DNA of 64,000 nucleotides, taken from positions 38,930 to 102,929 of IMG/VR virus record IMGVR_UViG_3300009130_000010; one strand, given 5' to 3'. The notes under the pieces are model-generated. The model saw nothing but the letters and a program-made list of their open reading frames with translations, ran no database searches and was not told where the DNA came from. The translations under genes and the position numbers were made by a program. The stretch comes from a virus. Positions 17,635-64,000 of the stretch are shown here, in pieces (within the stretch, counting starts at the first letter, position 1; every line of letters starts with the position of its first letter).

Positions 17635-17664
17635 ATTATACATTAACAATAATAGCTTTGTCAA
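17635..17664 (-). promoter_or_regulatory. Sigma70-type promoter for the gp47-gp46-proX-proW unit
   Basis: TTGACA (17659-17664), 18 nt spacer, TATAAT (17635-17640) on the minus strand, ~20 nt upstream of the gp47 ATG. Confidence 0.7.
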
Positions 17665-31812: not shown

Positions 31813-32076
31813 ATGAAAGATCAAATAATAATGTTATTGATAGGAATTCTAATCGCTTTAGGTGGTTGGAACCTAACACAAACATTTAGTCTATCAACTA
31901 CTCAAGCAGTAATTGACGACAAGGTTGATAAGTTAGAAAGACTTACTGAGAAGTTATTAGACCAGATGGACGATATGAAAGACATGGATGAAGAAATTGT
32001 TGAACAGCATCAGGACTTATTTGAACAACTTAGAAATAATCCATCAAGTACACCAAGCCCAGGATACAATTACTAA
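31813..32076 (+). CDS. Small single-TM coiled-coil protein
   Basis: IIMLLIGILIALGGW TM helix followed by heptads; closely coupled to gp6 and the giant ORF. Confidence 0.65.
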   Translation: MKDQIIMLLIGILIALGGWNLTQTFSLSTTQAVIDDKVDKLERLTEKLLDQMDDMKDMDEEIVEQHQDLFEQLRNNPSSTPSPGYNY

Positions 32077-44000: not shown

Positions 44001-45068
44001 AGTTCAGCAACATATGACTTAACTACAAGTTCAGATATAGACCATTCTACTTTAGTAAAAGCAAATACTAGAGTTTATATTAATGGCGTACAAACTACAA
44101 ACTATAGTATTGTTGAAGGATCTGATAGTACAATAAAAGCAATTCAATTAGATGAGGCACCAGCGGCAAATTCTAAAATTGATGTAGGTGTTACAACAAA
44201 CGCTGATTATATTTTAACAGATAGTACAACATTAACTATTACAGGTGGAACTTGGACAGGTAGTGATAAAGTTGTTGTTACTACATTTAATAATCATAAT
44301 AATATGAAAATGACTACTGAAACATTTAAAGGTGGAAGTAGTTCAGCTATTACAACAGATATCGGATTTGATATTCGAGGATTTGAATCTGTTAGTTTTG
44401 ACGCCGTTACGGCTAGTGTTGTTAATATAGCAGAATTTAATTTATTTAAAACGCCAACAAACTTATCATATTTGTGGGTAACAAAGAACGGTGTTAAAAT
44501 GATTCCGAACTTTGATTATAAAATTGTCGGCGGCAAGTTAGCATTTGCTGAGTCGCTTCAAGCATCTGACATTACAATAATAACACAATTTACAGAAGAA
44601 ATTATTAAACCAGCAGTTGGATTTAAAATCTTTAAAGATTTACATGATAAAGTACACTATCATAGATTAGCAAATGAAAACACAGCTGAATTGTCCACAG
44701 AACTATTAGCAATACATTCAGAAATCAAAGTTACTGACGCTAGTAGATTACCTACACCAGATCTTAATAAAGCAATTCCTGGTGTTATTTGGATTAATAA
44801 TGAAAGAATAGAATACTTAGAAATTAATTTAACTACTAATACGCTTTCTAGAATAAAACGTGGTACTTTAGGCACAGGGTGCCAATCGACACATACAGCA
44901 GGAAGTTTAGTAGTAGATACAAGTAGTAGACAAGAAATTCCATCAGCTCATACTAAAACATGGTACCAAGTAAGTGGTGGTAACCCTAGTGATGGTAATG
45001 GTTTACAAAATTCAACAACTATACAAGCAGATTTCTTAGTTAAGAAACCTACTTACATAAAGAGCTAA
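32076..45068 (+). CDS. Giant (4330 aa) baseplate wedge / fibre structural protein (gp7-like position)
   Basis: Follows gp6; N-terminal FLPQAYQT..NKKFL..TLDQL; FG-GAP-like propeller repeats; GDGS(T/N) Ig-like repeats; KPYHTKIRE; C-terminal ERIEY...RGTLGT. Confidence 0.7.
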   Translation: MAKRNTSSFLPQAYQTERNKKFLSATLDQLMSSSNLTRMDGFVGRKYAPSFKVKDNYLTTTGLRRNYHLEPAIVTKKDSTIDSIVDSNDVGSVVTYDDLLNKLKDEGVDITDHSKLFGQEFYNWAGFINFDTLVNYGSYYWLKDGPNSVSITGGDIKMSGEWNIKYNDELNRYNVTELEGINPTIYLARGGVYTFETDQLENFWIQTDPGSITGTQAETSTKSSREIYGVTNNGGAQGDLEPAGGITFTVPDVTAQSFYENNLNLLADVNLFSEVPYKDVQGRRLADLIDQHNGIDNQRMLVGKTVVFKQNEDHNVDNDNWTFKADYSKHPFDRLGFAQEDGMVKQEERVGVWKINEVDGILVLNKINTVTYDDRAKITEGTTYGGRQIYRAQETEFVTIIPVLTAHLDTLYYQHGSDRTSYGIIKLVDAEAKEIKTTDFLGKSQYTSPNGIVFTNGLKITFDSTIDMPAYVGKTYYVQGVGSKIYLVDTELTTPELGTDTKDYITLTRGSVNKNAWSRSNRWFHKDIITATASYNKTTAIFDEKNRAVRPIIEFEAGLDLYNSGSKGHDGVDLVDTVETDALSNINGVSGYFVDRVSLSAGTKVIFIKDKDSQTRKTIWEVGYEDTDGDSSAESLVLKDSGIIVNTNDSVYINKGTAGKGTTYHWDGTNWIASQTKTKINQYPLFNLFDSKGISFNNTTTYPSSDFLGNQLFKFSVGSGSNDTELGFPLKYRTFNNVGDILFENVYTEKKFNYKKSTGITSLSTATGLVKVTDPYDSAITYNNGWQKSLHNSRQYQQVEYIVSDITLKNFDIGVKVKTSTNAVPNIFVYINNKRTSNFTTSVLEGVNICTINDTIAIDDSIIIRLISDATSKHGYYTIPKNLEDNSYNDKFSTITLGQLQNHVSALIDTNKYFTGKLQGSNNLRDLENSKSTEGLILQHSSSMILPMLLNQPGDLNFTQALRFCGLEYEKFKSKFLTALETLDNLELTDAQKTVDAIMVYLNSNKKTTFPFYTSDMVPYGADATTTTYTITDNRDKTYEITSVHDNSIPSNRAVLVYLNDVQLYHNIDYTFETTSANIRIIKTLTIGDVLKFIDYTDTLGNYVPPTPTKLGLWKKYKPEIVNDTTYSVDQNIIVGHDGSRTIAYGDTRDNILLELEKRIYNNCKTAYDEDVFNLDEYTPGRFKTTDFAVKEVDAVLEDEFLRWSTRHRIPYTENTTFNANDSFTWNYTNFVDKLEGTLLPQGYWKGLYKHYYDTVAPHIRAWEMFGWSIKPSWWEDRYGVGPYTSGNKVLWDDVRDGRRYTSADVDDYTINLLYARPSIELIMPVDEHGVLKPPIDCITKNSEDLSPSHAWKFGDVAPPEYAWRNSSSFAFSVNHLMALIKPSEYFSQVFNKSQIVRNKLTKQLVMTTTNQRQQPKDLKVDLPTARYEGCCNFVSEYLRWQNIDVTKHLQNVLSTLDIRLAHKMEGYTDHNLIKVLAEQVSPTSTSNSVYVPDEDYNIHLHKTGPLRSIPYSGVIVQVGTSGYTIYGYNLNNPKFSICNPIMNGNYKVHDVDGETIYEYDEYESEIKEVPYGHTFRTKQEVADFFFSYQKYLTRNGYDFDNRMEDFGTQKIVANWLMSVKEFIHWSKQGWLSGSVIAISPSANRIRCVTPAGVAEALSNSQAQTNVLNQNYEPLRPSSYKISRQDNEFELYPNPDMGGIYFVNTKLVEYEHVLVFNNVTKFNDVIYQPSLGNRQYRLRLVGYKTGGWNGSLTAEGFIYNDGKVPVWVANTDYVRGDIIKFKDNLYTAMVNHTSSEEFIYENWSLTDSFKIGLLPNFDTLGKNFESFYDVNTVNLESETDKYGKGSIGYQNREYFNQIGLDDISQVKFYQGMLQEKGTRSAVDKLIRSNFDQFSSDISFYEEWAIRQAEYGASDVNSRIEIQLDEEGFKDNPQEIKVVPTTQSKSDLNSKTEFTPSQLYKAPSDLTYDWVPLRKSFKAGVDSKAFYDELLPTAGYPKLTDADATLFYSVDANTLTPMIANMKVGYTVWVADDGDNDWDMKYLDTTTTQVINCDGGQDGSTYTWTTKDTHYFKKEDIVVIKDYSTKRDGVYRITEVPSVTSFKTAGGGEVAKEEATALVLKFISSRFKTSSTIERPRQGWDLKDKLYIDEDENNHWYVLKKNTSYTANQSINPLLPQLDENFGDAICSDPTGQWVLIGQKNLNKFHVYTPQPIELKQFAAITSTASNVDELGASVSTGAFLPREGGALKYEKWHRGKIWVAIGAPNTNSGKGAIMFYYRDLSSGSFLPGTLDQPTTLGSNAKFGTNVKMSANGEWCVVSAPGDKKVFIYHLAHGNDNDETATQSFIGDGSTTQWTLDTNFDDASVTEELYIRIEGNDLIAGRDYTYNLGTRTITFTTAPSTDHSISVTFLRGWSLVDERSSTIEGYGSSIDIDSQGNYIVIGDPNRDTVAPDSTTNMGSIDILARHYEVFIGDGSTKEFTVSTADIGRASSPVYINGVETPRITNSTITWTKAGNTITFVTAPQPGEDITIWTDNFTPLQTLTPSDPQVNGQFALTSVRIDETAQSIYVGVPEKDGMTENSGIVEVFDRQDSIVENKCTLKAWPIGSYTTGHSMFINGYKITATGTTLQNIVDDINNKNIPGITASGSNNNLTIQSSKNVKGFIHVTVGASGTLMKDLNLHPFTSNTGKIIKLKDGKTGHRFGQVLEVTRDNKQLIVGCPNGSTTVKTNFDDGTTLFDGGGSRFLAEKYFTGSVHVYQKINAGHIEADSLYASGLDANDGFGSALAITEHNIYVGSPFDDTSTVSNSGRVVHFTKTDDLYKVDEKEQDLVDVERINKAFLYNTQSNTIMSYLDYIDPVKGKVLGEAEHNIDYKTTWDPAIYNYTDGTKKINNGDNHWQSDKVGKIWWDLSKVKFINYEQGDNDYKKLFWGGVFPGSDISIYQWVESSVKPESYTAGNAKYGNSVYVEIQSINNVTKQLQTKYYFWASAILTVHSTKTSSVAQIRQMIVDPITNGTPYIMFLGKDSIGLTNVSGYLEDKNVVVAIDYDKKPNDKLLHTEWSLVEEGNPKSFIPEELFEKIKDSLAGADSRGNKVPDISLSAGDKYGIKIRPRQSVFMNRYLAMQEYITYVNAVIKKYNIADTIDFTLLNSEEKIPSINSGTWDETVDTMIELGYIKPALHSTGYNILVKTDSDIGGRWSIHTLQADKTWLRSRSQSYDTKLFWAYCDWYSTGYSSDTTIDYRYELFNDIYKNTIADKSIIKINNGGNWDLYIKDGNDYTLIGQKDGTIQFGTDLYDYVTSNLGFDSEGYDFNLMDTEPQIETRNIVETIKKQLLVGDLANEHNKLMFVLLRFALQEQPFVDWIFKTSFVSVKHNLRALDQFPTYQRDNQEFVKNYINEVKPYHTKIREYVLGYNKLETHEGDTTDFDIPSGYDSITKTFRSPNGENSHDAGALTTDYAYKMWNENHSYQVDSLSISKWGYGYATAPTITIEAPKDKNGTLIPGGVAATAKCTIVDNHIDVVTMIKKGSGYIKAPVVTLTGGSPMLNGILHANLKNTEIRKIKETIKFDRTRYSSSVKEWTANTTYSTSDIIQHLGEAYTVNEAFTSSTAFDSDKLTIKADATFNNAMDRTMAYYIPKTGQDGKDLGQIFKGITYPGTKVQGPLFTKDPGLDKGGFDTREFDNYEIDKDGRFVISADNIDLDLQGKFNDTQLGLRPEDIIVDGSSKFVDAYSSHAPEEFVPGRVFDSLNINVFTSPSRDSDGDGALGPAVSVINYKGDGSNKVFKFGTNKQTDQKVIVWSKTSGRISSSAYTIDWNDNVVKFTTAPLKDEIISVTSFGTTGDKLLFDYEFQASGGETVVTLPIPYSLIENKQTLVLANGSHSTGGTFVDKGSDTDWDPAVSWLTKDDHIHFFVFDVPSSSTRTFSKVTVDEFTVNDSTRTFTLTDGADNDLARTDKVIVELNGKRLRPPVFTYLTNDSSSATYDLTTSSDIDHSTLVKANTRVYINGVQTTNYSIVEGSDSTIKAIQLDEAPAANSKIDVGVTTNADYILTDSTTLTITGGTWTGSDKVVVTTFNNHNNMKMTTETFKGGSSSAITTDIGFDIRGFESVSFDAVTASVVNIAEFNLFKTPTNLSYLWVTKNGVKMIPNFDYKIVGGKLAFAESLQASDITIITQFTEEIIKPAVGFKIFKDLHDKVHYHRLANENTAELSTELLAIHSEIKVTDASRLPTPDLNKAIPGVIWINNERIEYLEINLTTNTLSRIKRGTLGTGCQSTHTAGSLVVDTSSRQEIPSAHTKTWYQVSGGNPSDGNGLQNSTTIQADFLVKKPTYIKS

Positions 45069-48239: not shown

Positions 48240-48268
48240 TTGACACCCTAATCCAAAGACTATATAAT
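48240..48268 (+). promoter_or_regulatory. Consensus sigma70 promoter for the glycan/Suf locus, preceded by late motif CTAAATA at 48229-48235
   Basis: TTGACA (48240-45), 17 nt spacer, TATAAT (48263-68). Confidence 0.85.
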
Positions 48269-51837: not shown

Positions 51838-52325
51838 AAATCTTATGTATAGGAAATGGTGTTAGTTTAAAAGATAATTTACATATTTGTAACTATCCAT
51901 ATGATTTTAAACTAGGAACTAAACGACAGTACAAAAGATTTAAAGATTTAGATTTTATTGCTGTAGCAGATAAGCAACCAGCAGAAGTATTAAGCGAAGA
52001 ATATAAAGGAAAAATTATTACTAAATGGAATACTAAAGAAAACTTTATTATTCCAAAAGAAGCAGACGATGATGACATTACAGGAACATTACAAATGAAA
52101 TATGCTGTTGAGTTAGGCGGAACAATTATTCATACAGTAGGGTTTGACTGTTTAAAAAATCGTATTGAGAAAGACGAAACGTGGGAATGGACAAAACCAG
52201 GCCCATGGGATATGACCAAACAACAACAAAGAAAATGGGATCAGGCATTAATGGACACATGGAAATCAAAAATGAAAGCCATCGAACACAGCAATCTCAA
52301 TATACAATGGAGACATTTCTTATGA
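51834..52325 (+). CDS. MptE / sialyltransferase-like Rossmann protein
   Basis: ILCIGNGVS at the N-terminus, TG..., IHTVGFD near the C-terminus. Confidence 0.45.
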   Translation: MKILCIGNGVSLKDNLHICNYPYDFKLGTKRQYKRFKDLDFIAVADKQPAEVLSEEYKGKIITKWNTKENFIIPKEADDDDITGTLQMKYAVELGGTIIHTVGFDCLKNRIEKDETWEWTKPGPWDMTKQQQRKWDQALMDTWKSKMKAIEHSNLNIQWRHFL

Positions 52326-53044
52326 TAGTAGACGTAACTGAAGTAGAACATTATACAGATAACCTATTTAAATTTAAAACAACAAGACCAGCGACATATA
52401 AATTTAGAGCAGGTGAGTTTGTGATGGTAGGATTAGATAGTGATGATCGTTCTATTCCTAAAAGGCCTTATAGCTTTTGTAATGGTCCTAATGAAGATTA
52501 CTTAGAATTTTATAGTATCAAATTACCAGACGGCCCACTTACAAGTAAATTACAACATATTAAAGAAGGTGATAAATTATTCGTAGGTGACAAAACTACA
52601 GGAACATTAGTAACAGACAACATATGGCCAGGTGGCATACCAAATAGTAACTTATGGCTTATAGCAACCGGAACTGGTATTGCTCCTTTTATGAGTTTAT
52701 TACGTGATCCAGAAATATATGGAATGTTTAATCTAGTAAATGTGTGTTGGACTACACGAACAATAAAAGATCAAGATGCTTATAAATCTATTTTAGAAAC
52801 AATGGATTGTAACTATATTCCTACAGTTACACAAGAAGACTTTCACAGACGTGGACGAATTACAGATTTAATTAAAGAAGGCAAAGCATTTCAAGAAACA
52901 TCACCCGAAAAAGATAAAGTTATGCTATGCGGTAGTATGGATTTTAATATCGAAATGAGAGACTACCTTGAAGAACGTGGTTGGCTAGAAGGTAGCAAAT
53001 CACAAGTTGGTTCATTTGTAGTAGAGAAAGCATTTGTTAAATGA
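52322..53044 (+). CDS. fpr: Ferredoxin/flavodoxin-NADP+ reductase
   Basis: FRAGEFVM, RPYS, GPLTSKL, ATGTGIAPF, GRIT, MLCGS, FVVEKAF; start moved to ATG 52322 (ATGA overlap). Confidence 0.92.
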   Translation: MIVDVTEVEHYTDNLFKFKTTRPATYKFRAGEFVMVGLDSDDRSIPKRPYSFCNGPNEDYLEFYSIKLPDGPLTSKLQHIKEGDKLFVGDKTTGTLVTDNIWPGGIPNSNLWLIATGTGIAPFMSLLRDPEIYGMFNLVNVCWTTRTIKDQDAYKSILETMDCNYIPTVTQEDFHRRGRITDLIKEGKAFQETSPEKDKVMLCGSMDFNIEMRDYLEERGWLEGSKSQVGSFVVEKAFVK

Positions 53045-53481
53045 GAAAAATAAGTCACAGAGGAAATTTAAATGGGCCTAATCCTGAAAGGGAGAACAGT
53101 CCACATTATATTTTTGAGGCACTAGCAGAAGGATTTGATGTTGAAATTGATGTATGGTATCAAAACGGAATGATACAACTAGGGCATGATAAACCTATAT
53201 ATACTGTTAACAAGAAAATGTTAAACATGAATGGCTTATGGTGTCATGCTAAAAATGTTGAAGCATTAGAGTATATGACTAACAACGACATTAATTGTTT
53301 TTGGCATCAAGGAGATGATGTTACGTTAACAAGTAAGGGTTATATATGGACACACTCTGACTACAATACTTACACACCAAAATCAGTAATATGTCATATG
53401 GAGAGACCTAGTATAGAAGAACTAGAAGTATATAAAAATTGTTATGGTTTATGTAGTGATTACATCGGAGTTATAGAATGA
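53041..53481 (+). CDS. Minimal GDPD / PI-PLC-like phosphodiesterase
   Basis: ISHRGN...ENS, DVEIDV, LGHD, WCHAKN, FWHQ.D..TLTS, CSDY. Confidence 0.75.
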
Positions 53482-54923
53482 AAAAAGAAACAGTAAAAAC
53501 AGTTGATAAATTCTCCGAGTATAAGCACGGCTGGTCAACTGATATAGAATCAGATACAATTCCAAAAGGCATAAACGAAGATATTGTTAAAATAATATCT
53601 TCTAAAAAGAATGAACCGCAATGGATGTTAGATTGGCGTCTTAAAGCCTATAGAGCTTGGATTAAAATGGAAGAGCCTAATTGGGCTAACGTTGATTTTC
53701 CTCAAATAGATTATCAAGATTTATATTATTATTCAGCACCTAAGAGTATGGCAGATGGTCCTAAGAGTTTAGATGAAGTAGACCCTAAACTATTAGAAAC
53801 ATACAAAAAATTAGGAATACCATTAGCAGAACAAAAAAAGTTAGCAGGTGTGGCAGTAGATGTTGTATTTGATAGTGTGTCAGTTGCTACAACATTTCAA
53901 GACGAATTAGAAAAAGCAGGAGTAATATTTTGTCCAATATCAGAAGCAATTCAGAAGCACCCAGAATTAGTTAAAAAATACATTGGTTCTGTTATACCAA
54001 TACGTGATCATTTTTATGCGGCGTTAAATTCTGCTGTATTTACAGATGGATCATTTGTGTATATTCCACCAGGTGTAAAATGTCCTATGGAATTATCAAC
54101 ATATTTTAGAATTAATGCTGAAAAAACAGGTCAATTTGAAAGGACATTAATAATTGCTGACAAAGGAAGTTATGTAAGTTATTTAGAAGGATGTACAGCA
54201 CCAATGAGAGATGAGAATCAATTACACGCCGCCAATGTAGAATTAGTTGCTCTTGATGATGCTGAGATAAAATATTCAACAATTCAAAATTGGTACCCAG
54301 GTGACGATCAAGGAAAAGGTGGCGTATATAATTTAGTTACTAAACGAGGAGCCTGCCGAGGACGTAACAGTAAAATAAGTTGGACCCAAGTAGAAACAGG
54401 TTCAGCAGTTACGTGGAAGTATCCTAGTTGTATATTACAAGGAGATAACTCTTCGGGTGAATTTTATTCTGTTGCTGTAACAAACAATTACCAACAAGCA
54501 GATACAGGAACTAAAATGATTCATATGGGTAAGAATACAAAAAGTAGAATAATCTCAAAAGGTATTTCCTGTGGACATTCACAAAACACTTACAGAGGAT
54601 TAGTTAGTATTAAGAAGATGGCCGATAAGGCTCGCAATTATACACAATGCGATTCATTACTTATAGGCGACAAGTGTGGAGCACATACTGTTCCATACAT
54701 AGATAATAATTGTAAGACTTCAGTATCAGAACACGAAGCGTCAGCATCTAAAATTAGTGATGACCAATTATTTTACATAAGACAACGAGGCATACCAGAG
54801 GAACAAGCTGTTAGTTTAATTGTTAATGGGTTTTGTAAAGAAGTATTACAAAAATTACCAATGGAGTTTGCTATGGAGGCACAGCAACTCGTAGGAATTA
54901 GTTTAGAGGGGAGCGTAGGATAA
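53478..54923 (+). CDS. sufB: Fe-S cluster assembly scaffold SufB
   Basis: [79 protein letters not shown]. Confidence 0.97.
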
Positions 54924-55351
54924 TGTCAAATAGATTTCATTTAGCCATACTAGCAGGCGATCTAGAAGTAGCAATAAAATTTTATTGTGATGTGTTAGGT
55001 TGTAAAAGAGGTATGGCAGAATTTAAATACCCCGATGCTTGGGTAGATATTAACTTCTGGGGTAATGAGTTAACACTACACGCATCAGATCCAAAAGATA
55101 AAAATGCTGGCGAACGACATAATGTTGATATGGGTAATGTATCTGTACCTCATTTTGGTGTACACTTAGACAATGATGTATTTCAAAATTTAAAACAGCG
55201 AATAATAGATAACGGAATAGAATTTTTAGATCCTCCCTTCATTAGGTTTGAAGGCGAGAGTAGACAACAAGAAACAATGTTTATCGAAGACCCTAACGGT
55301 AACTGTTTAGAAATTAAAACAATGGCGAATCCAGATGAATTATTTAGATAA
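54923..55351 (+). CDS. VOC / glyoxalase family protein
   Basis: FHLAI, FY..VLG, PHFG, TMFIEDPNGN.LEIK. Confidence 0.88.
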   Translation: MSNRFHLAILAGDLEVAIKFYCDVLGCKRGMAEFKYPDAWVDINFWGNELTLHASDPKDKNAGERHNVDMGNVSVPHFGVHLDNDVFQNLKQRIIDNGIEFLDPPFIRFEGESRQQETMFIEDPNGNCLEIKTMANPDELFR

Positions 55352-55739
55352 AATTACAGAGTATAAAAATAACATTGAAACGTTACGAGCAATTGAAAGT
55401 TTAGAAGTTTACCGATGGTTGATTTCGCTCGGGGCAAAATTAAACTTCGATCCTTTAAGTGAAGAAAAACGTATTGAAGAAAACAGAGTAAGTCGTTGCC
55501 AGTTTGATTTATTTGTTGATTGGGAAGATGGTAAATTTAAAGCATGGAGCAACGCCATGATAGCTGGAGGTTATGCTTACATACTAATAGATATTTTTAA
55601 TTCTCCAGGAGCAGAAAAAATCACAATAGAACAATTTGAAGAAATTAAACTAGACGAATTACTAACAATGAATAGAAAAACTGGATTCTATCAAATGATC
55701 GAGATAATGATAAAAAGGATACCGAATGTTAAAAATTGA
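55335..55739 (+). CDS. sufE: SufE-like sulfur acceptor
   Basis: YRWLISLG.KL, ENRVSRCQ (conserved Cys), SNAMIAGG, LTMNRKTGF. Confidence 0.75.
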   Translation: MNYLDKITEYKNNIETLRAIESLEVYRWLISLGAKLNFDPLSEEKRIEENRVSRCQFDLFVDWEDGKFKAWSNAMIAGGYAYILIDIFNSPGAEKITIEQFEEIKLDELLTMNRKTGFYQMIEIMIKRIPNVKN

Positions 55740-56460
55740 AAACTTAAAAGTATCAATAGATGGTAAAGAAATAATAAAAGACTTAACCCTTAATATTCCA
55801 AAAGGTGAAGTTCATGCTTTAATGGGTCCTAACGGATCAGGTAAAAGTACATTGGCTAATGTGTTAGCTGGGCGAACTGGTTATGATATTGATGGAACAA
55901 TTTCTTATCAAGGAAAAGATTTATTAACTTTACCAATAGAAGAAAGAGCTCAAGAAGGTTTGTTTTTAGCATTTCAATATCCTGTTGAAGTTCCTGGCGT
56001 TAATACAAGTAACTTTTTAAGATCAGCACTAAATCAAACTCGTAGACATAGAAAAGAAGCAGAATTAGACCCTTTAGAATTTGTTGCAAAAATACAACAA
56101 ACAGCAGAAACCCTTAACATTGACAAAACAATACTTAATAGAGAACTAAATGTAGGATTCTCAGGGGGCGAAAAAAAGAAAAATGAAGTATTACAAATGT
56201 CTATCTTAGAACCTACGTTAGCAATTCTAGATGAGACTGATTCTGGTTTAGATATAGACGCTTTAAGAATCGTAGCAGACGGTGTAAATGCTTTAAAAAA
56301 TAAAGATAGATCTTTTTTAATTATTACACATTACCAACGTTTACTAGATTACATTAAACCAGACTTTGTTCATGTTTTAATGGATGGGAAAATAGATAGA
56401 ACAGGATGTGAAGCACTAGCTTTAGAATTAGAAAAGAGTGGTTATGGACATACAAAATAA
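55726..56460 (+). CDS. sufC: Fe-S cluster assembly ATPase SufC
   Basis: MGPNGSGKST, FLAFQYPVEVPGV, GFSGGEKK, LDETDSGLDIDAL, ITHYQRLLDYI.PD.VH. Confidence 0.97.
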   Translation: MLKIENLKVSIDGKEIIKDLTLNIPKGEVHALMGPNGSGKSTLANVLAGRTGYDIDGTISYQGKDLLTLPIEERAQEGLFLAFQYPVEVPGVNTSNFLRSALNQTRRHRKEAELDPLEFVAKIQQTAETLNIDKTILNRELNVGFSGGEKKKNEVLQMSILEPTLAILDETDSGLDIDALRIVADGVNALKNKDRSFLIITHYQRLLDYIKPDFVHVLMDGKIDRTGCEALALELEKSGYGHTK

Positions 56461-57016
56461 TTATAAAAAAGTTATAAACTTAAAAGAAGATTCAGTATTA
56501 AATTATAACTTAAAAGAAGACTCAATTGCGGTTATATTTTTTTATAATTATTCTGGCGTTGCGACAACTGTTAATATAAACTTAGATACAAATTCATCTT
56601 GCGAGTTGTATGGTATATTTAAAAACACAGATGAGAAAACAGATGTTGTTACTAACGTAGTACACAATGGTCATAATTCAAAGTGTAATCAAGACTTTAG
56701 ATTTATAAACAAGAATAGTGTTAGTTCTTTTGAGGGTTTAATTTCTGTTCCTAAAGATATTACTAATTGTGAAAGTCATATGTCTAACAAAAATCTTTTA
56801 TTAGATACTACATCTAAAGCATTCGCAAAACCAGAATTAAACATTTTAAATTCTAATGTTGTTTGTTCACATAGCAGTACAACTGGAGCATTAGATGAAG
56901 AACAATTATTTTATCTTCAAAGCAGAGGAATATCATATGAGGACTCTATTGATATGCTCGTAGAAGCATTTTCCCAAGACATTAAAAATAAAATGGAAGG
57001 AACAATCAAACAATGA
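56444..57016 (+). CDS. sufD: SufD-like protein, short (C-terminal beta-helix only)
   Basis: NKNLLL, AKPELNI, CSHSSTTG.LDEEQLFYLQSRGI, MLVEAF; ~190 aa, roughly half of a typical SufD. Confidence 0.8.
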   Translation: MDIQNNYKKVINLKEDSVLNYNLKEDSIAVIFFYNYSGVATTVNINLDTNSSCELYGIFKNTDEKTDVVTNVVHNGHNSKCNQDFRFINKNSVSSFEGLISVPKDITNCESHMSNKNLLLDTTSKAFAKPELNILNSNVVCSHSSTTGALDEEQLFYLQSRGISYEDSIDMLVEAFSQDIKNKMEGTIKQ

Positions 57017-57744
57017 AAATAGCTGTTTGTGTTAGTGGACAATTACGAGGTCACTGGGAAGAATCTATTAAAACGTGGCCGTTAATGTTTGATAAAGAAT
57101 CCGAGGTTGATTACTTTGTACATACATGGACAAATAAAACGGCCCCTAATGCTATAGCACATAAAAATAAAGACGACGAAGAAAAAAGTATTAGTAAGCA
57201 AGAACTTAACAAACTTAAAAAAATATTAAAGCCTAAAAAAATATTAATAGAAGATCCTATAGAATTTAAAACTGAAAACGAATGGGCAGTATTTGACCCA
57301 AATTATCATAGTCAATTTTACGGTGTTATGATGGCTTGTAATTTAAAACAACAATACGAACATGATTTTGCTTTACAATATGATGTTTGTGTAAGAATGA
57401 GATTCGATAATTACGTTGAAAAAAAATATCATATATCACAAATGAAAATGGGCGAAGCTCATATCATTCATCAAACGTTTGATAAAAATCATAGATATAG
57501 ATGTAGTGATGTTTACTTTGCTACAACAAGTTTTGACTATGACCGTATGTGTGATTTTTATAGTTGTATACCTAGATATAAAAAAGATTGGTTTGTAATT
57601 AACGACGACAAAACATACGGACCTGAACACGTTTTAGCATTTCATATGAAAGCTAATAATATAAAACCTGTACAAACTTATATGCCAATTAAATTAAAAC
57701 GAGAAGAAAAACATTATAGCGGAGGTGCCCATGAGATCACCTAA
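57013..57744 (+). CDS. Putative glycosyltransferase-like protein (KIAVC.SGQ.R family)
   Basis: KIAVCVSGQLR, DYFVHTW, SQFY, YD..VRMRFD, SD, PE. Confidence 0.55.
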   Translation: MKIAVCVSGQLRGHWEESIKTWPLMFDKESEVDYFVHTWTNKTAPNAIAHKNKDDEEKSISKQELNKLKKILKPKKILIEDPIEFKTENEWAVFDPNYHSQFYGVMMACNLKQQYEHDFALQYDVCVRMRFDNYVEKKYHISQMKMGEAHIIHQTFDKNHRYRCSDVYFATTSFDYDRMCDFYSCIPRYKKDWFVINDDKTYGPEHVLAFHMKANNIKPVQTYMPIKLKREEKHYSGGAHEIT

Positions 57745-58456
57745 GGTAGCCATTTGCTGGAGTGGGCAATTACGAACTGGCTTACGAGCTGTTCCGTACT
57801 TGTTAAGATTTTTTGAAAATATAAAAAACATTGATCATTTTTATCATAGTTGGGATAACGATCAGCCAAAAGAAGATTGGGATAAACTTAATGAACTTTT
57901 AGATCCAGTTGAGTCGTTTATTGAAACACCTTGGAAACATAGAGGCTTTGCTGGTAATATGTTACATAGTATACAACAATCTAATTGGCTTAAACGACAA
58001 CATGAACTTAAAAATAAATTTAGATATGACATTGTAATTAAATGTAGATTTGATTTATTAATACCAATACACAAACGTTGGATATACCCTGAAGTAGTTG
58101 ATAGAAGCATATATTATAGCATAGGCAACAACGGACTAGTGCTAACTGATTTTGCTACACACGGCTTTAGTGATTTAATTTATTGGGGTAATAGTCATGC
58201 TATGGATATCATTAGTGACTCTTATAGATATTATAATTGGACATTAATGCCAAAACAATTAACTTGCTTAACTGGTGGTAATGTAGACCCTGAAGACACA
58301 ATGTATTCTCCAGGTACAATAATGTATCAACTAGGACAAAAATATAATTTAAGAATGATACAAATAGAACCACAACTAGGAGAAACACTTTGGCGAACAT
58401 CAGTTGTTGACTTAGATCCATATCTAGACTGGAATGAAATTAGAGAGGCATACTAA
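57731..58456 (+). CDS. Paralog of the upstream KVAIC.SGQLR-family protein
   Basis: KVAICWSGQLR, DHFYHSW, YDIVIKCRFD, FSDLIYWG; ATG 57731 with SD GGAGGT. Confidence 0.55.
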   Translation: MRSPKVAICWSGQLRTGLRAVPYLLRFFENIKNIDHFYHSWDNDQPKEDWDKLNELLDPVESFIETPWKHRGFAGNMLHSIQQSNWLKRQHELKNKFRYDIVIKCRFDLLIPIHKRWIYPEVVDRSIYYSIGNNGLVLTDFATHGFSDLIYWGNSHAMDIISDSYRYYNWTLMPKQLTCLTGGNVDPEDTMYSPGTIMYQLGQKYNLRMIQIEPQLGETLWRTSVVDLDPYLDWNEIREAY

Positions 58457-58899
58457 TGATCATCAGTACTGTTAACTTGTTCTGTTATTATAATATACCG
58501 GGAGCAGATAAAGAAATGTTGTTTGGGTTTAAAAATCATACACACGCTACTAAAGAAACAGATACTAATACAGCATTACATAGTTTTATTGTATACAAAG
58601 ATTGTTATAGAATATTTTATGATCAATGGATTGATAGCGGAGTAGTACAAAAGAAATTTCTAGATAAAGTTGTTGTGCCAGAAATACCAGACTTGCCTGA
58701 TAACTGTAAGCGTTTTTCTTACAATAACATTTATACAGAGGCGGCTACTTACATACAGCAACTTACTGGTACAAGATTTTATCCAAAGTATTTTAATCAT
58801 ACAACATATAAAGAAGGAGATGTGTTGCCAGAACTAAAAGAAAAACTTAGAACAATATTTAAAGAATACAACGACAAACTAGGAATTAAAAATGAGTAA
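58456..58899 (+). CDS. Hypothetical protein
   Basis: Coupled ORF (TAATG overlap). Confidence 0.55.
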   Translation: MIISTVNLFCYYNIPGADKEMLFGFKNHTHATKETDTNTALHSFIVYKDCYRIFYDQWIDSGVVQKKFLDKVVVPEIPDLPDNCKRFSYNNIYTEAATYIQQLTGTRFYPKYFNHTTYKEGDVLPELKEKLRTIFKEYNDKLGIKNE

Positions 58900-59752
58900 G
58901 TTATTAGTAGTAGGTGACAGTTGGTGCTTCGGTAGTGAAATTAGAAACCCTGATTTAAGTGTGGATATTAAAGACTGGGATATACAAAATAACAGTTATC
59001 GCATACCTAGAATTTGGCCTACATTACTTGCTAAAGAATTAGGTACAGGTTTAACTAACTTATCTTACCCGGCGGCAAGTAATGATCGTATATTACGACT
59101 TACTGAAAGTTGGTTGTATGAAAATTATATAAGTCGAAATAGAAGTACTAATGAACTTAAAGTTATAATTGGTTGGACAAGTCCAGAACGTAAAGACTTT
59201 TTCTATACTGACCCCCATAATAAAAGTACACCAAACTGGACAACTATATGGCCACAACAAGCAGGATTTGATTATGTACAACCAGGCATGAATGATTTCT
59301 TTAAACTATATGTAACTTACTTGTGGCATCAACGTGAAGCATTAAATAGGTACGTTCATCAAGTAACAGCAATGGAAAATTTATGTAAGGCACATGACAT
59401 CGAATTGCTGATGTTTCAAGCGTTCTATGACGCAGGCAAAGGCATACACGGAGCAAAAGAAAATATGGATGACTTTATAGATTATAAAAGTCCAGGTTAT
59501 ATAAATGATGAATTTGAGAAAGCAGAGCTTGGAGAAAAACATCCAGGCTGGCATCATCATTACAGTAATGAAATGAATAAGACAATGTGGGAATGCCTAA
59601 ATCAAAAAACATTTATGACAGAAAGTTTCTTTGGTTATATGAAAAAGAAAGGCCTCGATAAAACAATTATAGGACAGCATCCAAATGAATTAGGACATAA
59701 ACTTTGGGCTGAACATATTAAAAAATATATAAAGGATAATTTAAAATGGTAA
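58892..59752 (+). CDS. SGNH/GDSL-like hydrolase or acyltransferase
   Basis: GDSW..G.E, WP, NLS...ASNDRI, IGWT..ER, HPNELGH..WA. Confidence 0.75.
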   Translation: MSKLLVVGDSWCFGSEIRNPDLSVDIKDWDIQNNSYRIPRIWPTLLAKELGTGLTNLSYPAASNDRILRLTESWLYENYISRNRSTNELKVIIGWTSPERKDFFYTDPHNKSTPNWTTIWPQQAGFDYVQPGMNDFFKLYVTYLWHQREALNRYVHQVTAMENLCKAHDIELLMFQAFYDAGKGIHGAKENMDDFIDYKSPGYINDEFEKAELGEKHPGWHHHYSNEMNKTMWECLNQKTFMTESFFGYMKKKGLDKTIIGQHPNELGHKLWAEHIKKYIKDNLKW

Positions 59753-60525
59753 AAAACGATCTCAACATTCATACAGTTTATAATGCTGGCGATAGTTTTG
59801 CTACTGGTGTTGGATTACATGATCCAAAAGTTTCATCATACCCTGTTAAGATAGCAGAAGCATTTGATTCTAAATTAATAAGTTTAGCTAGACCAGGTTG
59901 TTGTAATTTTAGTATTAGTTTAATGATAAAATATTTCGTTGACAACTTTGACGAAGATGCATTTTATATAATATCTACTACTAATGAAGATAGATTACAT
60001 TGGCTTAAACCTGGTATAGTGTATAGTAACGAACAGGAAGTAACAATTCAAGATTTAAATTATGAAGATTATAAAGAAAACTTATTAACTGACTTACCGT
60101 TTAATAGTAACAATATTCTCCAAAGTGAAACTTGTAGCAATATATTATTATTTAAAGAAGGTGGCATACCAACTAACAAAACATTAAAAAGCGAACCAGA
60201 GTCTAGACTTAATACATTGTGTTCATATGTTAAAGAAGTTCATGATAGTAAAATTAAACGATACGAAGATTGTGGCATTTTTGCCACACAATTACATAGA
60301 TTAAATCAACTAACATCAAATTGGGTATTGTTTACAATGTGGCACGAGTTAGAAGAGATGTTTCCTAATAACTTTTTACAAGTAGATTACGGTATTGTTA
60401 GCAAAGAATATCCAGATGATCTAGGCAGTGGACACTTTAATAGAACAGGTCATAGAGTAATAGCAAGAAAATTTGAAGAATGGTATACAAAAAACTATGA
60501 TGTGTCGGATAAATTGTTTAAATAA
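59746..60525 (+). CDS. SGNH/GDSL-like hydrolase or acyltransferase
   Basis: GDSFATG, LARPGCCN, GHFNRTGH..IA. Confidence 0.7.
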   Translation: MVKNDLNIHTVYNAGDSFATGVGLHDPKVSSYPVKIAEAFDSKLISLARPGCCNFSISLMIKYFVDNFDEDAFYIISTTNEDRLHWLKPGIVYSNEQEVTIQDLNYEDYKENLLTDLPFNSNNILQSETCSNILLFKEGGIPTNKTLKSEPESRLNTLCSYVKEVHDSKIKRYEDCGIFATQLHRLNQLTSNWVLFTMWHELEEMFPNNFLQVDYGIVSKEYPDDLGSGHFNRTGHRVIARKFEEWYTKNYDVSDKLFK

Positions 60526-60545
60526 TACAAAGGAGAACATCAACA

Positions 60546-61319
60546 ATGCCAATAAAACTTTTATATACAACAGGCGACAGCTGGACCTATGGCGAAGAAT
60601 TAGGTGATGTAACAGCAGTTGATAACTTGAATCATAAATTTTATAACAGTTGGCCTTGGCACGTTTCACAACATTATAATATTCCACAGCTAATAAATGA
60701 TGCCAGAGGTGGTGGCTCCAATGCTAGGATGTATAGGAGAACAATAGAATTTTTACAATCATACAAAGGTAAATTCTCTGAATTAGCTATTATTGTTGCT
60801 TGGTCAACATACGAGCGTACTGAATTTTCTTTACCAGCAGAAGAGAAATATCATGACGGTGAGAAATTTGTTGAATGGACTGAACGACAATTCTTCCATT
60901 GGCATCACAGTAATGATCCAGAATCTATGGATTTTAGTGGATTCTTGAGTCCAGGACAAAATATGGCATTGAAGTCATTACATAAAAGTTGGACATTACT
61001 ACGAGACCCTTCAGGTGATGCTCCTGCTTTAAAAAACTTAATGTGGTCATTACAAGAAATTTGTAAAACAAATAAAATAAAACTTCATCAATTTTTTGCA
61101 TTAACTAATCCCGAATTTGAAAAAGAGTACAGCGAGTATGAACCAATTTGGGCCGAACAAGTCAAATACTATCAACCTGCTTTTGCTAGTAAAACATTTG
61201 GTGCTGGTGAAGGTATAACTGGATTTGTTTCTAGGGTTGGTATTGGCTCGCACCCAAACGAAAAAGGACATAAAGAAATAGCAAACTTTATAGTAGATAA
61301 GATAGGAGATAAAATATGA
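60546..61319 (+). CDS. SGNH/GDSL-like hydrolase or acyltransferase
   Basis: GDSWTYGEE, SWP, NDA.GGGSN.R..R, WS..ER, HPNEKGH..IA. Confidence 0.75.
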   Translation: MPIKLLYTTGDSWTYGEELGDVTAVDNLNHKFYNSWPWHVSQHYNIPQLINDARGGGSNARMYRRTIEFLQSYKGKFSELAIIVAWSTYERTEFSLPAEEKYHDGEKFVEWTERQFFHWHHSNDPESMDFSGFLSPGQNMALKSLHKSWTLLRDPSGDAPALKNLMWSLQEICKTNKIKLHQFFALTNPEFEKEYSEYEPIWAEQVKYYQPAFASKTFGAGEGITGFVSRVGIGSHPNEKGHKEIANFIVDKIGDKI

Positions 61320-61438
61320 GGTTGTTAAGACGTATAAAGAAGTTCTTTACTGATATCTATTTAAAAATTAAAATGGAAATAGCATACAGAAAGAAACTTA
61401 AAGAAATTAAAAAACGAGATCCGTTTATATACAAATGA
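61316..61438 (+). CDS. Small basic protein, 40 aa
   Basis: Below the ORF-track cutoff. MRLLRRIKKFFTDIYLKIKMEIAYRKKLKEIKKRDPFIYK; SD AGGAG; ATGA overlaps with both neighbours. Confidence 0.7.
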   Translation: MRLLRRIKKFFTDIYLKIKMEIAYRKKLKEIKKRDPFIYK

Positions 61439-62163
61439 AAATAGTAGTAGCAATGGCTGGCCTTGGAACACGTTTTCAAGAAGCAGGACATACATATCCT
61501 AAACCGTTAATCCGTACGGGCAACACAACTATGATTCAAAACGTGTATTATAGTTTAGCCTGGCCTGGTGATTGGTACTTTATAGCATTGAAAGAACACC
61601 TTGATCAATTTAACTTTATGTTACCGTTATTAGAAAGTATGGGAAGTGTTACAGTAATAGATAAACCAACACGTGGTGCGGCTGAAACATTACAACAATG
61701 TAAAGAAATAATGAATAGTAGTGGTCCTTTTATTAGTGTTAATTGTGATCAAGTATTTGAATGGGACACAACAGAACTACAAGAAAAAATGAAAGTAGAA
61801 CCAGATGCTAGTTACATGACAACTTACGATTCACTAGACGAACAAAGACATAGTTTCGCTCTTACAAATGATAATGACATAGACGTTTGGCATTGTTGTG
61901 AAAAAACAAGACTTGGTTATCATTGTAATAATGCTACTACTGGATTCTATCATTTCGCTAATGGCGAAGTATATAATGAAGCAACAACTAAATTATTATC
62001 CAAACCACCCGAGTATGGTGAATATTATGTGTCATCTGTTTATAACGAGTTAATTGCTAAAAAACATATTGTAAAACAATACAAAGTACACGCAAAAACA
62101 TTTTGGCCTGTTGGTACACAACCTGACTGGTTACATTATACACACAGGCATTTTAGACGATGA
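61435..62163 (+). CDS. Sugar-phosphate nucleotidyltransferase (NTP_transferase / RmlA-GlmU-like)
   Basis: MAGLGTRF...YPKPLI, TRGAAET, NCDQ, EK, ATTGFYHF, GEYYVS..YN, VGT..D. Confidence 0.85.
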   Translation: MKIVVAMAGLGTRFQEAGHTYPKPLIRTGNTTMIQNVYYSLAWPGDWYFIALKEHLDQFNFMLPLLESMGSVTVIDKPTRGAAETLQQCKEIMNSSGPFISVNCDQVFEWDTTELQEKMKVEPDASYMTTYDSLDEQRHSFALTNDNDIDVWHCCEKTRLGYHCNNATTGFYHFANGEVYNEATTKLLSKPPEYGEYYVSSVYNELIAKKHIVKQYKVHAKTFWPVGTQPDWLHYTHRHFRR

Positions 62164-62873
62164 TAACTTTATACACTAATGGTGATAGCTGGACACAAGG
62201 AGACGAACTAGGTCTACCATACAAAGAACACGAAACAGAAGCAGAACAATACTATTGGAGTTGGCCTTGGCAGTTACACAAACTACTAGGTACTACAATG
62301 TGTTTTAATGATGCTGTTAAAGGTACAAGTAACAATAGAATATTTCGCAGAACTACAAATTTTATTAGAAATTATAACAAACATTATAACCCAAGAGAAC
62401 TAATAGTTGTTGTATGTTGGACAACATTAGATAGAGATGAGATTCCTATTGATGTAAACGATACTGGTTGGCATATTCCTATACAAATGTATGGCGTTAA
62501 ATTGCCCAACCATAGTGAGATAAGTAAACTTGATGCTACTACAACAGAAGCATTAAATCAAATTCACAAACCTTACACTATGACTCTCCCTGGGATTAAA
62601 GTTAGATCAGAGTTACAATATTCACGTATGTGGAACTTAAAACAAATTTGTGATAGTTTAGGAATAAAATTAATTCAATCTTGGGCTTTAGACATACCGC
62701 AGTTTGACCCAACACATAACGATTTTGTAAAACAATGGATAGATGATATAAAATATCTGCCAGAGATATTCATTAACTATTGTAGGAAAAAGAATTACCC
62801 ACTCGGTCCAGGAGGACATTGTTATAAAGATGGGCATGAAGGTTGGGCAAAGTACATATATGAAAACATTTAA
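62160..62873 (+). CDS. SGNH/GDSL-like hydrolase or acyltransferase
   Basis: NGDSWTQGDE, SWP, NDA..GTSNNRIFR, WT..DR, GGHC...GH..WA. Confidence 0.72.
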   Translation: MITLYTNGDSWTQGDELGLPYKEHETEAEQYYWSWPWQLHKLLGTTMCFNDAVKGTSNNRIFRRTTNFIRNYNKHYNPRELIVVVCWTTLDRDEIPIDVNDTGWHIPIQMYGVKLPNHSEISKLDATTTEALNQIHKPYTMTLPGIKVRSELQYSRMWNLKQICDSLGIKLIQSWALDIPQFDPTHNDFVKQWIDDIKYLPEIFINYCRKKNYPLGPGGHCYKDGHEGWAKYIYENI

Positions 62874-63168
62874 TATTACATACAACAAATGGAAAGACGT
62901 AACTCGTCCTATAGCTTTTTTAAAAGCAGGAGGAACAACATTATACGTTGAAGCATTAATGAATCAAAAAGATCTTGATGTAATTAATGTTGATACTAAA
63001 ATTCATAGTGCTGATCCTACTTGTGAAAATGCTTGTAAAACTTTACACCCAGGTTGTGAATATAATGTTGTTAATAATTTATCTGGCCCGATTGTTATTA
63101 ATGATGATTGGAAAATTGAAACTGAAAAGGATTTATATGAATATAACTTATACGAGGAATACAGATGA
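62860..63168 (+). CDS. Hypothetical protein, possibly a reduced nucleotidyltransferase-like domain
   Basis: RPIAFLKAGGTTL and KIETEKDL loosely resemble NTP-transferase termini; start ATG 62860. Confidence 0.45.
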   Translation: MKTFNITYNKWKDVTRPIAFLKAGGTTLYVEALMNQKDLDVINVDTKIHSADPTCENACKTLHPGCEYNVVNNLSGPIVINDDWKIETEKDLYEYNLYEEYR

Positions 63169-63494
63169 AGATATTTGATTTTAAGAAAATGTTTAAAGGC
63201 TGGTTTGTTGGAGACTTTGAAAATACGGCCATGTCTGCTAATTTTGAAGTAGCATATCATACACATACTAAAGGAGAATTCCACCAAGACCACTTTCATA
63301 AAGAACAGCGTGAAGTAACAATGATTATTGAAGGCGAAATGATTTGTAATGGACAGCATTTGAAAGCAAATGATATTTTTGTTATTGAACCTTATGAAGT
63401 AAGTATCTGTGAATTCTTGACAGACGTTAAAGTAATAGTAGTAAAAAATATTTGTAACACAAGTGACAAATATTCATTTGACATTAAGAATTAA
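63165..63494 (+). CDS. Cupin-fold protein (possible sugar isomerase/epimerase)
   Basis: KGWFVGDF, H.H....E.T....G, DIF.IEP.E, VVK....SDKY. Confidence 0.75.
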   Translation: MKIFDFKKMFKGWFVGDFENTAMSANFEVAYHTHTKGEFHQDHFHKEQREVTMIIEGEMICNGQHLKANDIFVIEPYEVSICEFLTDVKVIVVKNICNTSDKYSFDIKN

Positions 63495-63506
63495 AGAAGG
63501 TATAAT
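63478..63506 (+). promoter_or_regulatory. Consensus sigma70 promoter, probably producing a leaderless mRNA
   Basis: TTGACA (63478-83), 17 nt spacer, TATAAT (63501-06); ATG at 63513. Confidence 0.8.
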
Positions 63507-63512
63507 AACACT

Positions 63513-64000
63513 ATGGAACTATACAGAACAATAGCACCCGACGATCATTTTAGTTGTAATTTCTTTTTAATGAGTCGGACAAATGTTAAAGAAGCCGCAG
63601 AAGCATTGGCAATTGGCCAAAGTATTGGTAATCCTTCTGTTAGAAGCAAATATGAAACACCAGAAATGATGGAAAATCATAGTGCTAAAATTATTGCTGA
63701 CCCAGACGACCTAGCAAATATCAAAGCAGGCGTTGTTGAAATTGCTTGGCCATATAGAAATATTGATTGGTATGCTGATGGTATTGCCCAATTAATGTGT
63801 ACTGTAATGGGTGGACAAATGGACATTGATATTATACAACAATGTCATTGGATTGACATTCATATTAATAGACTTAAAGCAGACTTGTCAGTACCATCAT
63901 ATGGATTAAGTGGCTTTAGAGATCATGTTCAATCATATGGCAAACCATTACTTGGTACTATTGTTAAACCAAAAACTGGACTTACTCCTGAGACATTAAA
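63513..64000 (+). CDS. RuBisCO large-subunit-like protein, 5' part; runs off the window end
   Basis: Not in the ORF track. MELYRT...EAAEALAIGQSIGNP...VEIAWP..NID...LMCTVMGGQMDID...PSYGLSGFR...GKPLLGTIVKPKTGLTPETL; PLLGTIVKPKTGL matches RuBisCO PLLG.TIKPKLGL (Lys175/Lys177 region). Confidence 0.85.
   Translation, partial: MELYRTIAPDDHFSCNFFLMSRTNVKEAAEALAIGQSIGNPSVRSKYETPEMMENHSAKIIADPDDLANIKAGVVEIAWPYRNIDWYADGIAQLMCTVMGGQMDIDIIQQCHWIDIHINRLKADLSVPSYGLSGFRDHVQSYGKPLLGTIVKPKTGLTPETL

Follow-up and report, generated by a model that had tools for sequence, protein, structure and literature searches.

The window, a 64,000-nt stretch of viral DNA (positions 38,930 to 102,929 of IMG/VR record IMGVR_UViG_3300009130_000010), stops within a genuine phage gene, which encodes a relative of RuBisCO that does not fix CO2. 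Because genes of this kind stand nearly always beside the gene of a sugar-activating enzyme, in phages, bacteria and archaea alike, the RuBisCO-like protein (RLP) probably helps to build an unusual activated sugar. In the reading to which we give a probability of roughly 0.6, it enolises a phosphorylated keto-sugar, serving as an enolase or isomerase in a nucleotide-sugar pathway. An earlier reading of the sequence alone had proposed a phage-encoded, non-carboxylating protein of RuBisCO fold in a sugar-nucleotide context, rare in viruses and driven by its own promoter. The outline is upheld by homologues at 98% identity and by the replacement of the carboxylation residues; the rarity and the use of the promoter are not.

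A RuBisCO fold without the carboxylation residues

The part of the gene that lies in the window encodes the N-domain together with the first strand of the barrel, which bears the KPK motif. The RuBisCO-fold motifs picked out by the sequence-only reading (AIGQSIG, VEIAWPYRN, PSYGLSGFR and KPLLGTIVKPKTGL) are all in the translation, and the Pfam models RuBisCO_large_N (20.5 bits) and RuBisCO_large (20.3 bits) both match it below threshold. A homologue search among longer proteins gave 186 relatives, the best of which (P0001, 375 aa) is 98% identical across 100% of the fragment (E 1.6e-102) and the second (P0002) 91%. On a metagenome contig (L125) there is a whole RLP gene, whose 375-aa product departs from the fragment at 4 of its 162 positions.

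An AlphaFold model of P0001, obtained with 23 relatives, has a pLDDT of 90.6 and superposes on the form III RuBisCO of Pyrococcus horikoshii (2d69/2cwx) with a TM score of 0.90. The best solved relative by sequence is again 2cwx (E 5.9e-29), with the 2,3-diketo-5-methylthiopentyl-1-phosphate enolases next. The alignment of the fragment covers the N-domain and the start of the barrel, and the model of P0001 has the whole fold of the RuBisCO superfamily, an alpha/beta N-domain followed by an 8-stranded TIM barrel.

Nineteen classical RuBisCO sites were mapped through alignments to solved RuBisCOs and a 118-row alignment. The RLP clade keeps K175, K177, K201, D203, E204, H327, S379, G381, G403 and G404, and replaces the others: E60G, T65N, W66P, N123G, T173I, H294Q, R295K (or R), H298D/I/E and K334Y. 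The pattern hardly varies among 40 clade rows (G, N, P, G, I, K, K, K, D, E, Q, K/R, D/I/E, H, Y, S, G, G, G). The first and fourth of these states, E60G and N123G, are read in the window's own sequence, and alignment to the solved RuBisCOs bears out the earlier observation that the usual Glu appears as Gly and the GN motif as GG; H294Q, R295K, H298D and K334Y come from relatives at 97-98% identity and from the clade. The sequence-only reading had also pointed out that the KxDE region lies beyond the window and that its loss there would speak against the identification. Full-length relatives at 97-98% identity have it as FIKEDE, the carbamate and metal motif of K201, D203 and E204, which P0001, P0002 and the L125 gene share and which does not vary within the clade. 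Conserved too is the P1 phosphate site (S379, G381, G403, G404).

In RuBisCO, the K201 carbamate with Mg2+ acts together with K175 in enolisation; CO2 addition depends on E60, N123 and K334, and H294 is used in hydration and cleavage. Because the enolisation core is kept and the residues of CO2 addition and cleavage are lost, the protein can plausibly enolise a keto-phosphate and cannot carboxylate; judged by its residues, it is no carboxylase. That it might nonetheless be a true RuBisCO, fixing CO2 or consuming ribulose bisphosphate and so boosting host carbon metabolism during infection, is suggested by archaeal form III enzymes being its best matches in sequence and structure and by the presence of K175, K177, K201, D203 and E204. 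Yet the full carboxylation residue set of bona fide form I, II and III enzymes is absent, E60, N123, H294, R295, H298 and K334 all being replaced clade-wide, and the protein reaches 130 of the 497 bits set as the cut-off of the form III model (TIGR03326). Moreover, a search of five phage records that carry an RLP, of which two are rated 100% complete, turned up no gene of the ribose-1,5-bisphosphate isomerase/MtnA (IF-2B) family, while the control matched 9 of 14 reference genomes. A CO2-fixing enzyme is therefore scarcely credible here.

A gene cut by the end of the assembly

The window ends on base 102929 of a 102,929-bp record. As the break in the gene is the record's last base, the gene was cut by the end of the assembly and not by mutation. 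The frame runs through 486 nt, from the ATG to the last codon that is complete in the window, with no stop or frameshift. The DNA of the nearest contigs that were fetched is only 80-90% identical to that of the window while the protein is ~98% identical, which argues for purifying selection on the protein.

These observations bear on whether the copy is a dead remnant that ends or is broken just past the contig end. Such a remnant would fit the fact that 162 codons are visible and that no retrievable contig runs past the end with the exact DNA (a 38-nt pattern from the window end had no exact match in metagenome contigs). The intact frame, the signature of selection in comparison with whole 375-aa genes, and a break that falls exactly on the last base of the record all oppose it, leaving a remnant very improbable.

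A clade of its own

The relatives of the window's RLP are set apart by four N-domain positions, G35, N40, P41 and G101 in P0001 numbering ('GNPG'), which serve as the clade label; the regular expression 'Q[KR]SGD' was too strict for this purpose. When 1.8 billion representatives were scanned, full-length clade members scored ~150-356 bits and were followed by a gap, and below ~125 bits came ordinary RuBisCO and RLP proteins at 30% identity or less. In a maximum-likelihood tree of the superfamily (118 rows) the GNPG rows, the window fragment included, occupy one side of a branch with an SH-aLRT of 100. The phylogenetic placement that the sequence-only reading had called for therefore gives the clade a branch of its own, apart from the classical RLP groups; no sister group was resolved among the 118 rows, and the nearest relatives outside the clade score best, below threshold, on the form III, MtnW or OiaX models without consistency.

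The window's RLP itself falls short of the cut-offs of the models for MtnW (125.5 of 409 bits for NF007095, 109 of 513.6 for TIGR03332) and for OiaX (106 of 700 for NF042437), so it belongs to neither the MtnW/YkrW nor the OiaX type. Outside the clade lie three fusion proteins of other architecture: a TIR-RLP fusion (P0216, 583 aa) and two fusions of an IF-2B domain, MtnA/R15P-isomerase-like, with a full RuBisCO (P0163 and P0189, 726 and 742 aa).

Phage RLPs are not new. Jaffe et al. (2019; PMC6389311) described ~80 of them, of a divergent 'Form IV-like' type, in a large clade found on phage contigs, some from Myoviridae, and in Beckwithbacteria, and left their function open. The window clade agrees with that account in its divergence, its occurrence on myovirus-like phage contigs from many environments, its partly kept key residues and its position apart from the classical RLP groups; there are myovirus genes in the window, relatives on 177 viral stretches and on 559 or more metagenomic ones, and a Beckwithbacteria locus (L090) among the cellular relatives, which matches the published host range. 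We infer from this likeness to the published description, rather than from a shared tree, that the window's RLP is a member of the 'Form IV-like' clade. The earlier statement that RLPs are rarely reported in viruses does not survive these numbers. The linkage and fusions described below, with genes for a nucleotidyltransferase, a cupin and a GDPD-like protein, find no mention in the available part of that paper.

Linkage to nucleotide-sugar genes

Linkage was assessed by calling open reading frames (ORFs) in 80 viral loci, clustering the proteins and scoring profile hidden Markov models on six-frame translations. Within 3 kb of the RLP gene, a sugar-phosphate nucleotidyltransferase (NT) is encoded in 78 of the 80 phage loci and a cupin in 64. 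The NT also stands beside the RLP in 38-39 of 43 bacterial and archaeal loci, among them those of a complete Pelagibacter genome, of SAR11 single cells, of DPANN and CPR bins, and of the cultured Nonomuraea rosea and Azospirillum oleiclasticum. Pooling of 124 phage and cellular loci at a 6-kb radius gave the NT in 117, a GDPD-like protein of ~150 aa in 92, a cupin of ~107 aa in 73 and a protein like GDP-mannose-4,6-dehydratase (GMD) in 39. The association with NTP-transferase, cupin and GDPD genes suspected from the window alone is thus very strong. In the window, an NT and a small cupin lie upstream of the RLP on the same strand.

The linkage extends to gene fusions. An RLP-NT fusion of 667 aa (P0123) is 45% identical to P0001, NT-cupin fusions occur in five loci (L024, L030, L050, L058, L076), and HAD-NT fusions occur in phage and Pelagibacter loci (L038, L093). 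A 438-aa ORF considered as a further RLP-NT fusion (L060/L062) was rejected, the NT lying in another frame with mere overlap.

The wider contexts are rich in glycan functions. The SAR11 locus reads GT17 - mini ORF - NT - RLP - NT - ... - GT61; in Azospirillum the order is RLP-cupin-NT-CysD-CysNC-GT41, that is, a glycosyltransferase (GT41) with genes for the synthesis of 3'-phosphoadenosine-5'-phosphosulfate; and in Nonomuraea RLP-cupin-NT-GT2-dehydrogenase-kinase is set between integrases. Around the last of these islands (L119; N. rosea JCM 17326, contig 69) lie integrase and transposase genes, which suggests that the cassette moves as a mobile unit in this cultured actinomycete. Phage contexts hold GMD, phosphomannomutase (PMM), FkbM methyltransferases, radical SAM enzymes and a carbamoyltransferase. 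In loci close to the window, such as L125, L126, L002 and L003, the RLP stop codon and the start of a gene for a type I phosphoribosyltransferase (PRTase) of 184 aa overlap; this neighbour, which lies at 1483-2037 in L125, is confined to the window's sub-lineage (18 of 203 loci). In the nearest relatives the PRTase is followed by a PMM-like HAD protein, two radical SAM enzymes, a carbamoyltransferase and a third radical SAM enzyme, and the set from the PRTase onward probably lies just past the window end. No paper joining an RLP, a cupin and a nucleotidyltransferase was found by full-text search, so the RLP-NT-cupin-GDPD cassette is, as far as searched, unpublished.

The nature of the partners is indicated by structure. 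A model of an NT-cupin fusion (pLDDT 96.5) was used in structure searches, in which the matches listed all come from the NT domain: nearest is 4evw, an uncharacterised NDP-sugar pyrophosphorylase of Vibrio cholerae (Z 28.9), then RmlA, GlmU and GalU (~Z 24), with the alditol-phosphate and CMP-sugar enzymes lower still (Z 16-21). As modelled, the NT is structurally nearest to the sugar-1-phosphate nucleotidylyltransferases. The cupin profile matched only small metal cupins in the PDB, among them Cupin_2 chains, a chain annotated as mannose-6-phosphate isomerase (E 7.8e-5) and KdgF, and an atlas lead went to Cupin_2/MannoseP_isomer clusters; the window cupin has no significant match to the Pfam family MannoseP_isomer. 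A complex prediction for the RLP with the NT scored 0.09 against a mark of 0.32, which speaks neither for nor against an interaction.

A proposed role in nucleotide-sugar synthesis

Residue conservation and linkage together suggest a scheme; in it the kind of reaction, the sequence of the steps, the substrate and the glycan that is served are our extrapolation. The RLP would bind Mg2+ through its carbamylated lysine and pull a proton from the carbon next to a ketone; by returning the proton elsewhere it would give an epimer or an isomer with a shifted carbonyl. There is precedent for epimerisation in a side reaction of RuBisCO itself, in which misprotonation of the enediol yields xylulose bisphosphate. 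The small cupin may perform a step of the aldose-ketose isomerase type, and a mutase or phosphatase of the HAD/PMM type, where present, may move or remove the phosphate. The NT would complete the conversion of a common sugar phosphate to an unusual nucleoside diphosphate sugar (NDP-sugar), for use by the neighbouring glycosyltransferases, methyltransferases, 4,6-dehydratases and carbamoyltransferases. Nothing was found that points specifically to the branched sugar entertained by the sequence-only reading.

Several observations weigh against this role. The protein is far below the cut-off of every NCBIfam RLP or RuBisCO model, and analogy with the characterised RLPs is accordingly loose. Only ~43% of the window's gene is present, the catalytic barrel lying beyond the contig end. 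Nor is the cassette uniform: profile searches within 3 kb left the cupin undetected in 16 of the 80 phage loci, and in the window the mini-GDPD gene is 10 kb from the RLP. Linkage alone cannot tell biosynthesis from salvage, and the order of steps could be reversed, with the RLP acting on an NDP-sugar.

In that reversed order, the RLP would follow the NT and enolise an NDP-keto-sugar, such as the product of a GMD-like 4,6-dehydratase, as an epimerase or keto-isomerase, with the cupin as a second epimerase of the CapF or RmlC kind. The RLP-NT fusion is compatible with it, as are the GMD-like dehydratases near the RLP and a weak match of the window cupin, below cut-off, to PF14667 (Polysacc_synt_C, E 0.0024), a family that we take to cover the C-terminal cupin of CapF. 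Clade proteins are also shorter than any others in the superfamily and lack the N-domain residues by which RuBisCO closes its active site, which could make room for a nucleotide. But the dehydratase is absent from two thirds of the loci, the P1 phosphate site is conserved as in enzymes that bind monoesters, and all characterised RuBisCO and RLP substrates are, to our knowledge, simple phosphate monoesters. Action after the NT is thus unlikely.

A second alternative places the RLP and cupin in the recycling of by-products of S-adenosylmethionine (SAM), methylthioadenosine (MTA) or 5'-deoxyadenosine, released by the island's radical SAM enzymes and methyltransferases. The MTA-isoprenoid shunt of Rhodospirillum rubrum reportedly pairs an RLP with a small cupin (Erb and colleagues, 2012), an architecture like that seen here; near its RLP, the window lineage has three radical SAM genes together with a Suf Fe-S module and methyltransferases; and the Nonomuraea island encodes a radical SAM enzyme as well as a protein whose NAD domain is like that of AdoHcyase. 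Radical SAM genes are nevertheless absent from most loci, and the MtnW models reach only 109-126 bits against cut-offs of 409-514. This alternative is weakened also because the constant partner is the NT, which has no role in such shunts, and because no MtnA-type isomerase was found in the five carrier records; we regard it as distinctly improbable.

A wider proposal is one that we advance tentatively, at somewhat less than even odds: that the clade supplies the committed enzyme for an anabolic route not yet described. A RuBisCO-fold enolase or epimerase would there work with a mini-cupin, a GDPD-like protein of half size and an NT dedicated to the route to make a rare NDP-sugar for surface or virion glycans. 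The route would be common to phages of the sea and of fresh water, to SAR11, CPR bacteria and DPANN archaea, and to a few actinomycetes and proteobacteria, and would probably have been spread by phages. We know of no RLP with an assigned job outside salvage or catabolism (methionine salvage, the breakdown of apiose and acid sugars); if true, the proposal would give the RuBisCO fold its first biosynthetic, glycan-building role and would name the missing step for an unknown sugar on SAR11, among the most abundant of marine cells, and on their viruses. Whole RLP genes exist in metagenomes and in the two cultured bacteria, and the natural RLP-NT fusions could be ready-made coupled enzymes. The window's own copy is of limited value, the gene being truncated and the clade already published; what it adds is a conserved promoter-like element and the lineage-specific PRTase neighbour.

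The promoter-like element before the RLP gene

A perfect sigma-70-like consensus, TTGACA-17-TATAAT, precedes the gene. The window holds three perfect matches to such a consensus where 0.19 are expected, and none of 100 shuffles reached three; since this far exceeds chance, the phage probably uses host sigma-70-type early promoters. The other two sites, TTGACA-16/18-TATAAT, lie at 17635-17664 (-) and 48240-48268 (+). In 36 loci, with RLPs that are only ~55% identical, the element stands 5' of the RLP with the spacing of 17 nt kept, and the sequence of its spacer varies.

The sequence-only reading took this element to drive the RLP gene. The element is real and conserved, but as a promoter of the RLP gene it is no more than putative: the -10 box ends 6 nt before the ATG and the sole Shine-Dalgarno-like sequence lies in the spacer, so that a transcript starting from it would be leaderless. 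A read-through operon transcript, by contrast, would carry AAGAAGG as the Shine-Dalgarno sequence for RLP translation. RNA-library contigs (four runs, covering 52000-64000) gave a few exact matches of 151-168 nt in the NT and DUF6071 genes; the RLP region had a single partial match, with an unlike tail of 255 nt. DNA carry-over is possible, and as such contigs cannot show starts or strands they do not decide between the two kinds of transcript.

The carrier phage and the surrounding genes

Among the products of the window's genes are gp46/gp47-like nuclease subunits, a gp5-like hub and a gp6-like baseplate wedge. The wedge (28293-31811) is closest, at 34-38% identity, to those of jumbo phages such as Atu_ph07, SCTP-2, Phosso, K64-1 and PA5oct, and CheckV puts the completeness of the 103-kb record at 25%; on these grounds we take the carrier to be, in all probability, a jumbo myovirus of the sea with a genome of ~400 kb. 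Seawater metagenomes from several studies contain nearly identical DNA, four marine runs (X1-X4) having 93-98% of the sequence words, and tblastn of P0001 against 50,697 GenBank phage records gave no match. Directly after the wedge gene a single ORF of 4330 aa (32076-45068) presumably encodes a giant structural or fibre protein.

The features near the RLP are collected in Table 1. The order on the plus strand is NT, DUF6071 protein, 112-aa ORF, cupin and RLP, so that of the two genes said by the sequence-only reading to stand directly before the RLP, the cupin is indeed next upstream, while the DUF6071 gene, the 112-aa ORF and the cupin intervene between the RLP and the NT. The ORF at 59746-60525 has no Pfam match. 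The mini-GDPD gene sits upstream of the RLP, and the sequence 3' of the RLP is past the contig end. Between 52187 and 57016, an FNR-like reductase, the mini-GDPD, SufB, a SufC-like ATPase and a short SufD stand together in the phage glycan island; these Suf genes, with the three radical SAM genes 3' of the RLP in the nearest relatives, suggest that the phage may bring along its own machinery for assembling Fe-S clusters.

Table 1. Features of the RLP region (window coordinates)
Feature	Position	Strand	Remarks
RLP gene, N-terminal part	63513..63998	+	162 codons (~43%) of a ~375-aa RuBisCO-like protein; 98% identity to P0001, 97.5% to the whole L125 gene
Sigma-70-like element, TTGACA-17-TATAAT, perfect	63478..63506	+	-35 in the conserved last codons of the cupin gene; -10 ends 6 nt 5' of the RLP ATG
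Shine-Dalgarno-like AAGAAGG	63494..63500	+	12 nt 5' of the ATG, inside the promoter spacer; conserved in relatives
Small metal cupin, 109 aa	63165..63494	+	Single domain, H-x-H...E motif; RLP cassette partner
112-aa ORF, no known family	62830..63168	+	ORF in same position in L004-L009
DUF6071 protein	62160..62873	+	Pfam; one of three Pfam-detected DUF6071 paralogues, others at 58892-59752 and 60546-61319
Sugar-phosphate nucleotidyltransferase (NT)	61435..62163	+	Pfam NTP_transferase; weak NCBIfam sugar-1-P nucleotidylyltransferase matches; PDB 4evw E 9e-10
Two tandem ~243-aa proteins	57013..58456	+	Cluster with DUF7796-bearing proteins of related loci; surrounding glycan island
Mini GDPD-like phosphodiesterase, 146 aa	53041..53481	+	HR..EN..E.D..H motifs; GDPD 7e0v E 3.4e-5 over N-terminal catalytic motifs

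Comparison with known systems

The archaeal form III RuBisCOs (P. horikoshii 2cwx/2d69, Thermococcus 3a12) have the same two-domain architecture as the window's RLP, whose clade is ~26% identical to them, has lost the carboxylation residues and is ~50-70 residues shorter. MtnW/YkrW (PDB 2oek, 2zvi) is likewise a non-carboxylating protein of RuBisCO fold with Gly at E60. As a 2,3-diketo-5-methylthiopentyl-1-phosphate enolase, it enolises a keto-phosphate by means of a carbamylated Lys, Mg2+ and a base equivalent to K175, the machinery that is kept in the window clade. Identity between the two is ~25%, however, and K177 is lost in MtnW but kept in the clade, where H294 is Q; MtnW works in methionine salvage, whereas the context of the clade is glycan synthesis. 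The OiaX proteins (NF042437; 3-oxo-isoapionate-4-phosphate decarboxylase/transcarboxylase of D-apiose catabolism) act on phosphorylated keto compounds derived from sugars, and their model gives the best score for some of the nearest relatives outside the clade. Their residue pattern is ETFN..HRWHK as against GNPG..QKDHY, and they are encoded in catabolic operons rather than in nucleotide-sugar cassettes.

In layout, the RLP loci resemble the GDP-mannose/6-deoxyhexose route. There, AlgA/ManC, a type II phosphomannose isomerase/GDP-mannose pyrophosphorylase, joins an NT to a C-terminal cupin and is accompanied by PMM and GMD; the NT-cupin fusions, the PMM-like HAD proteins and the GMD-like dehydratases of the RLP loci recall this arrangement. 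The GDP-mannose route has no RLP, whereas the RLP loci combine theirs with an NT that is nearest to the uncharacterised 4evw and with a cupin that lacks a significant MannoseP_isomer match.

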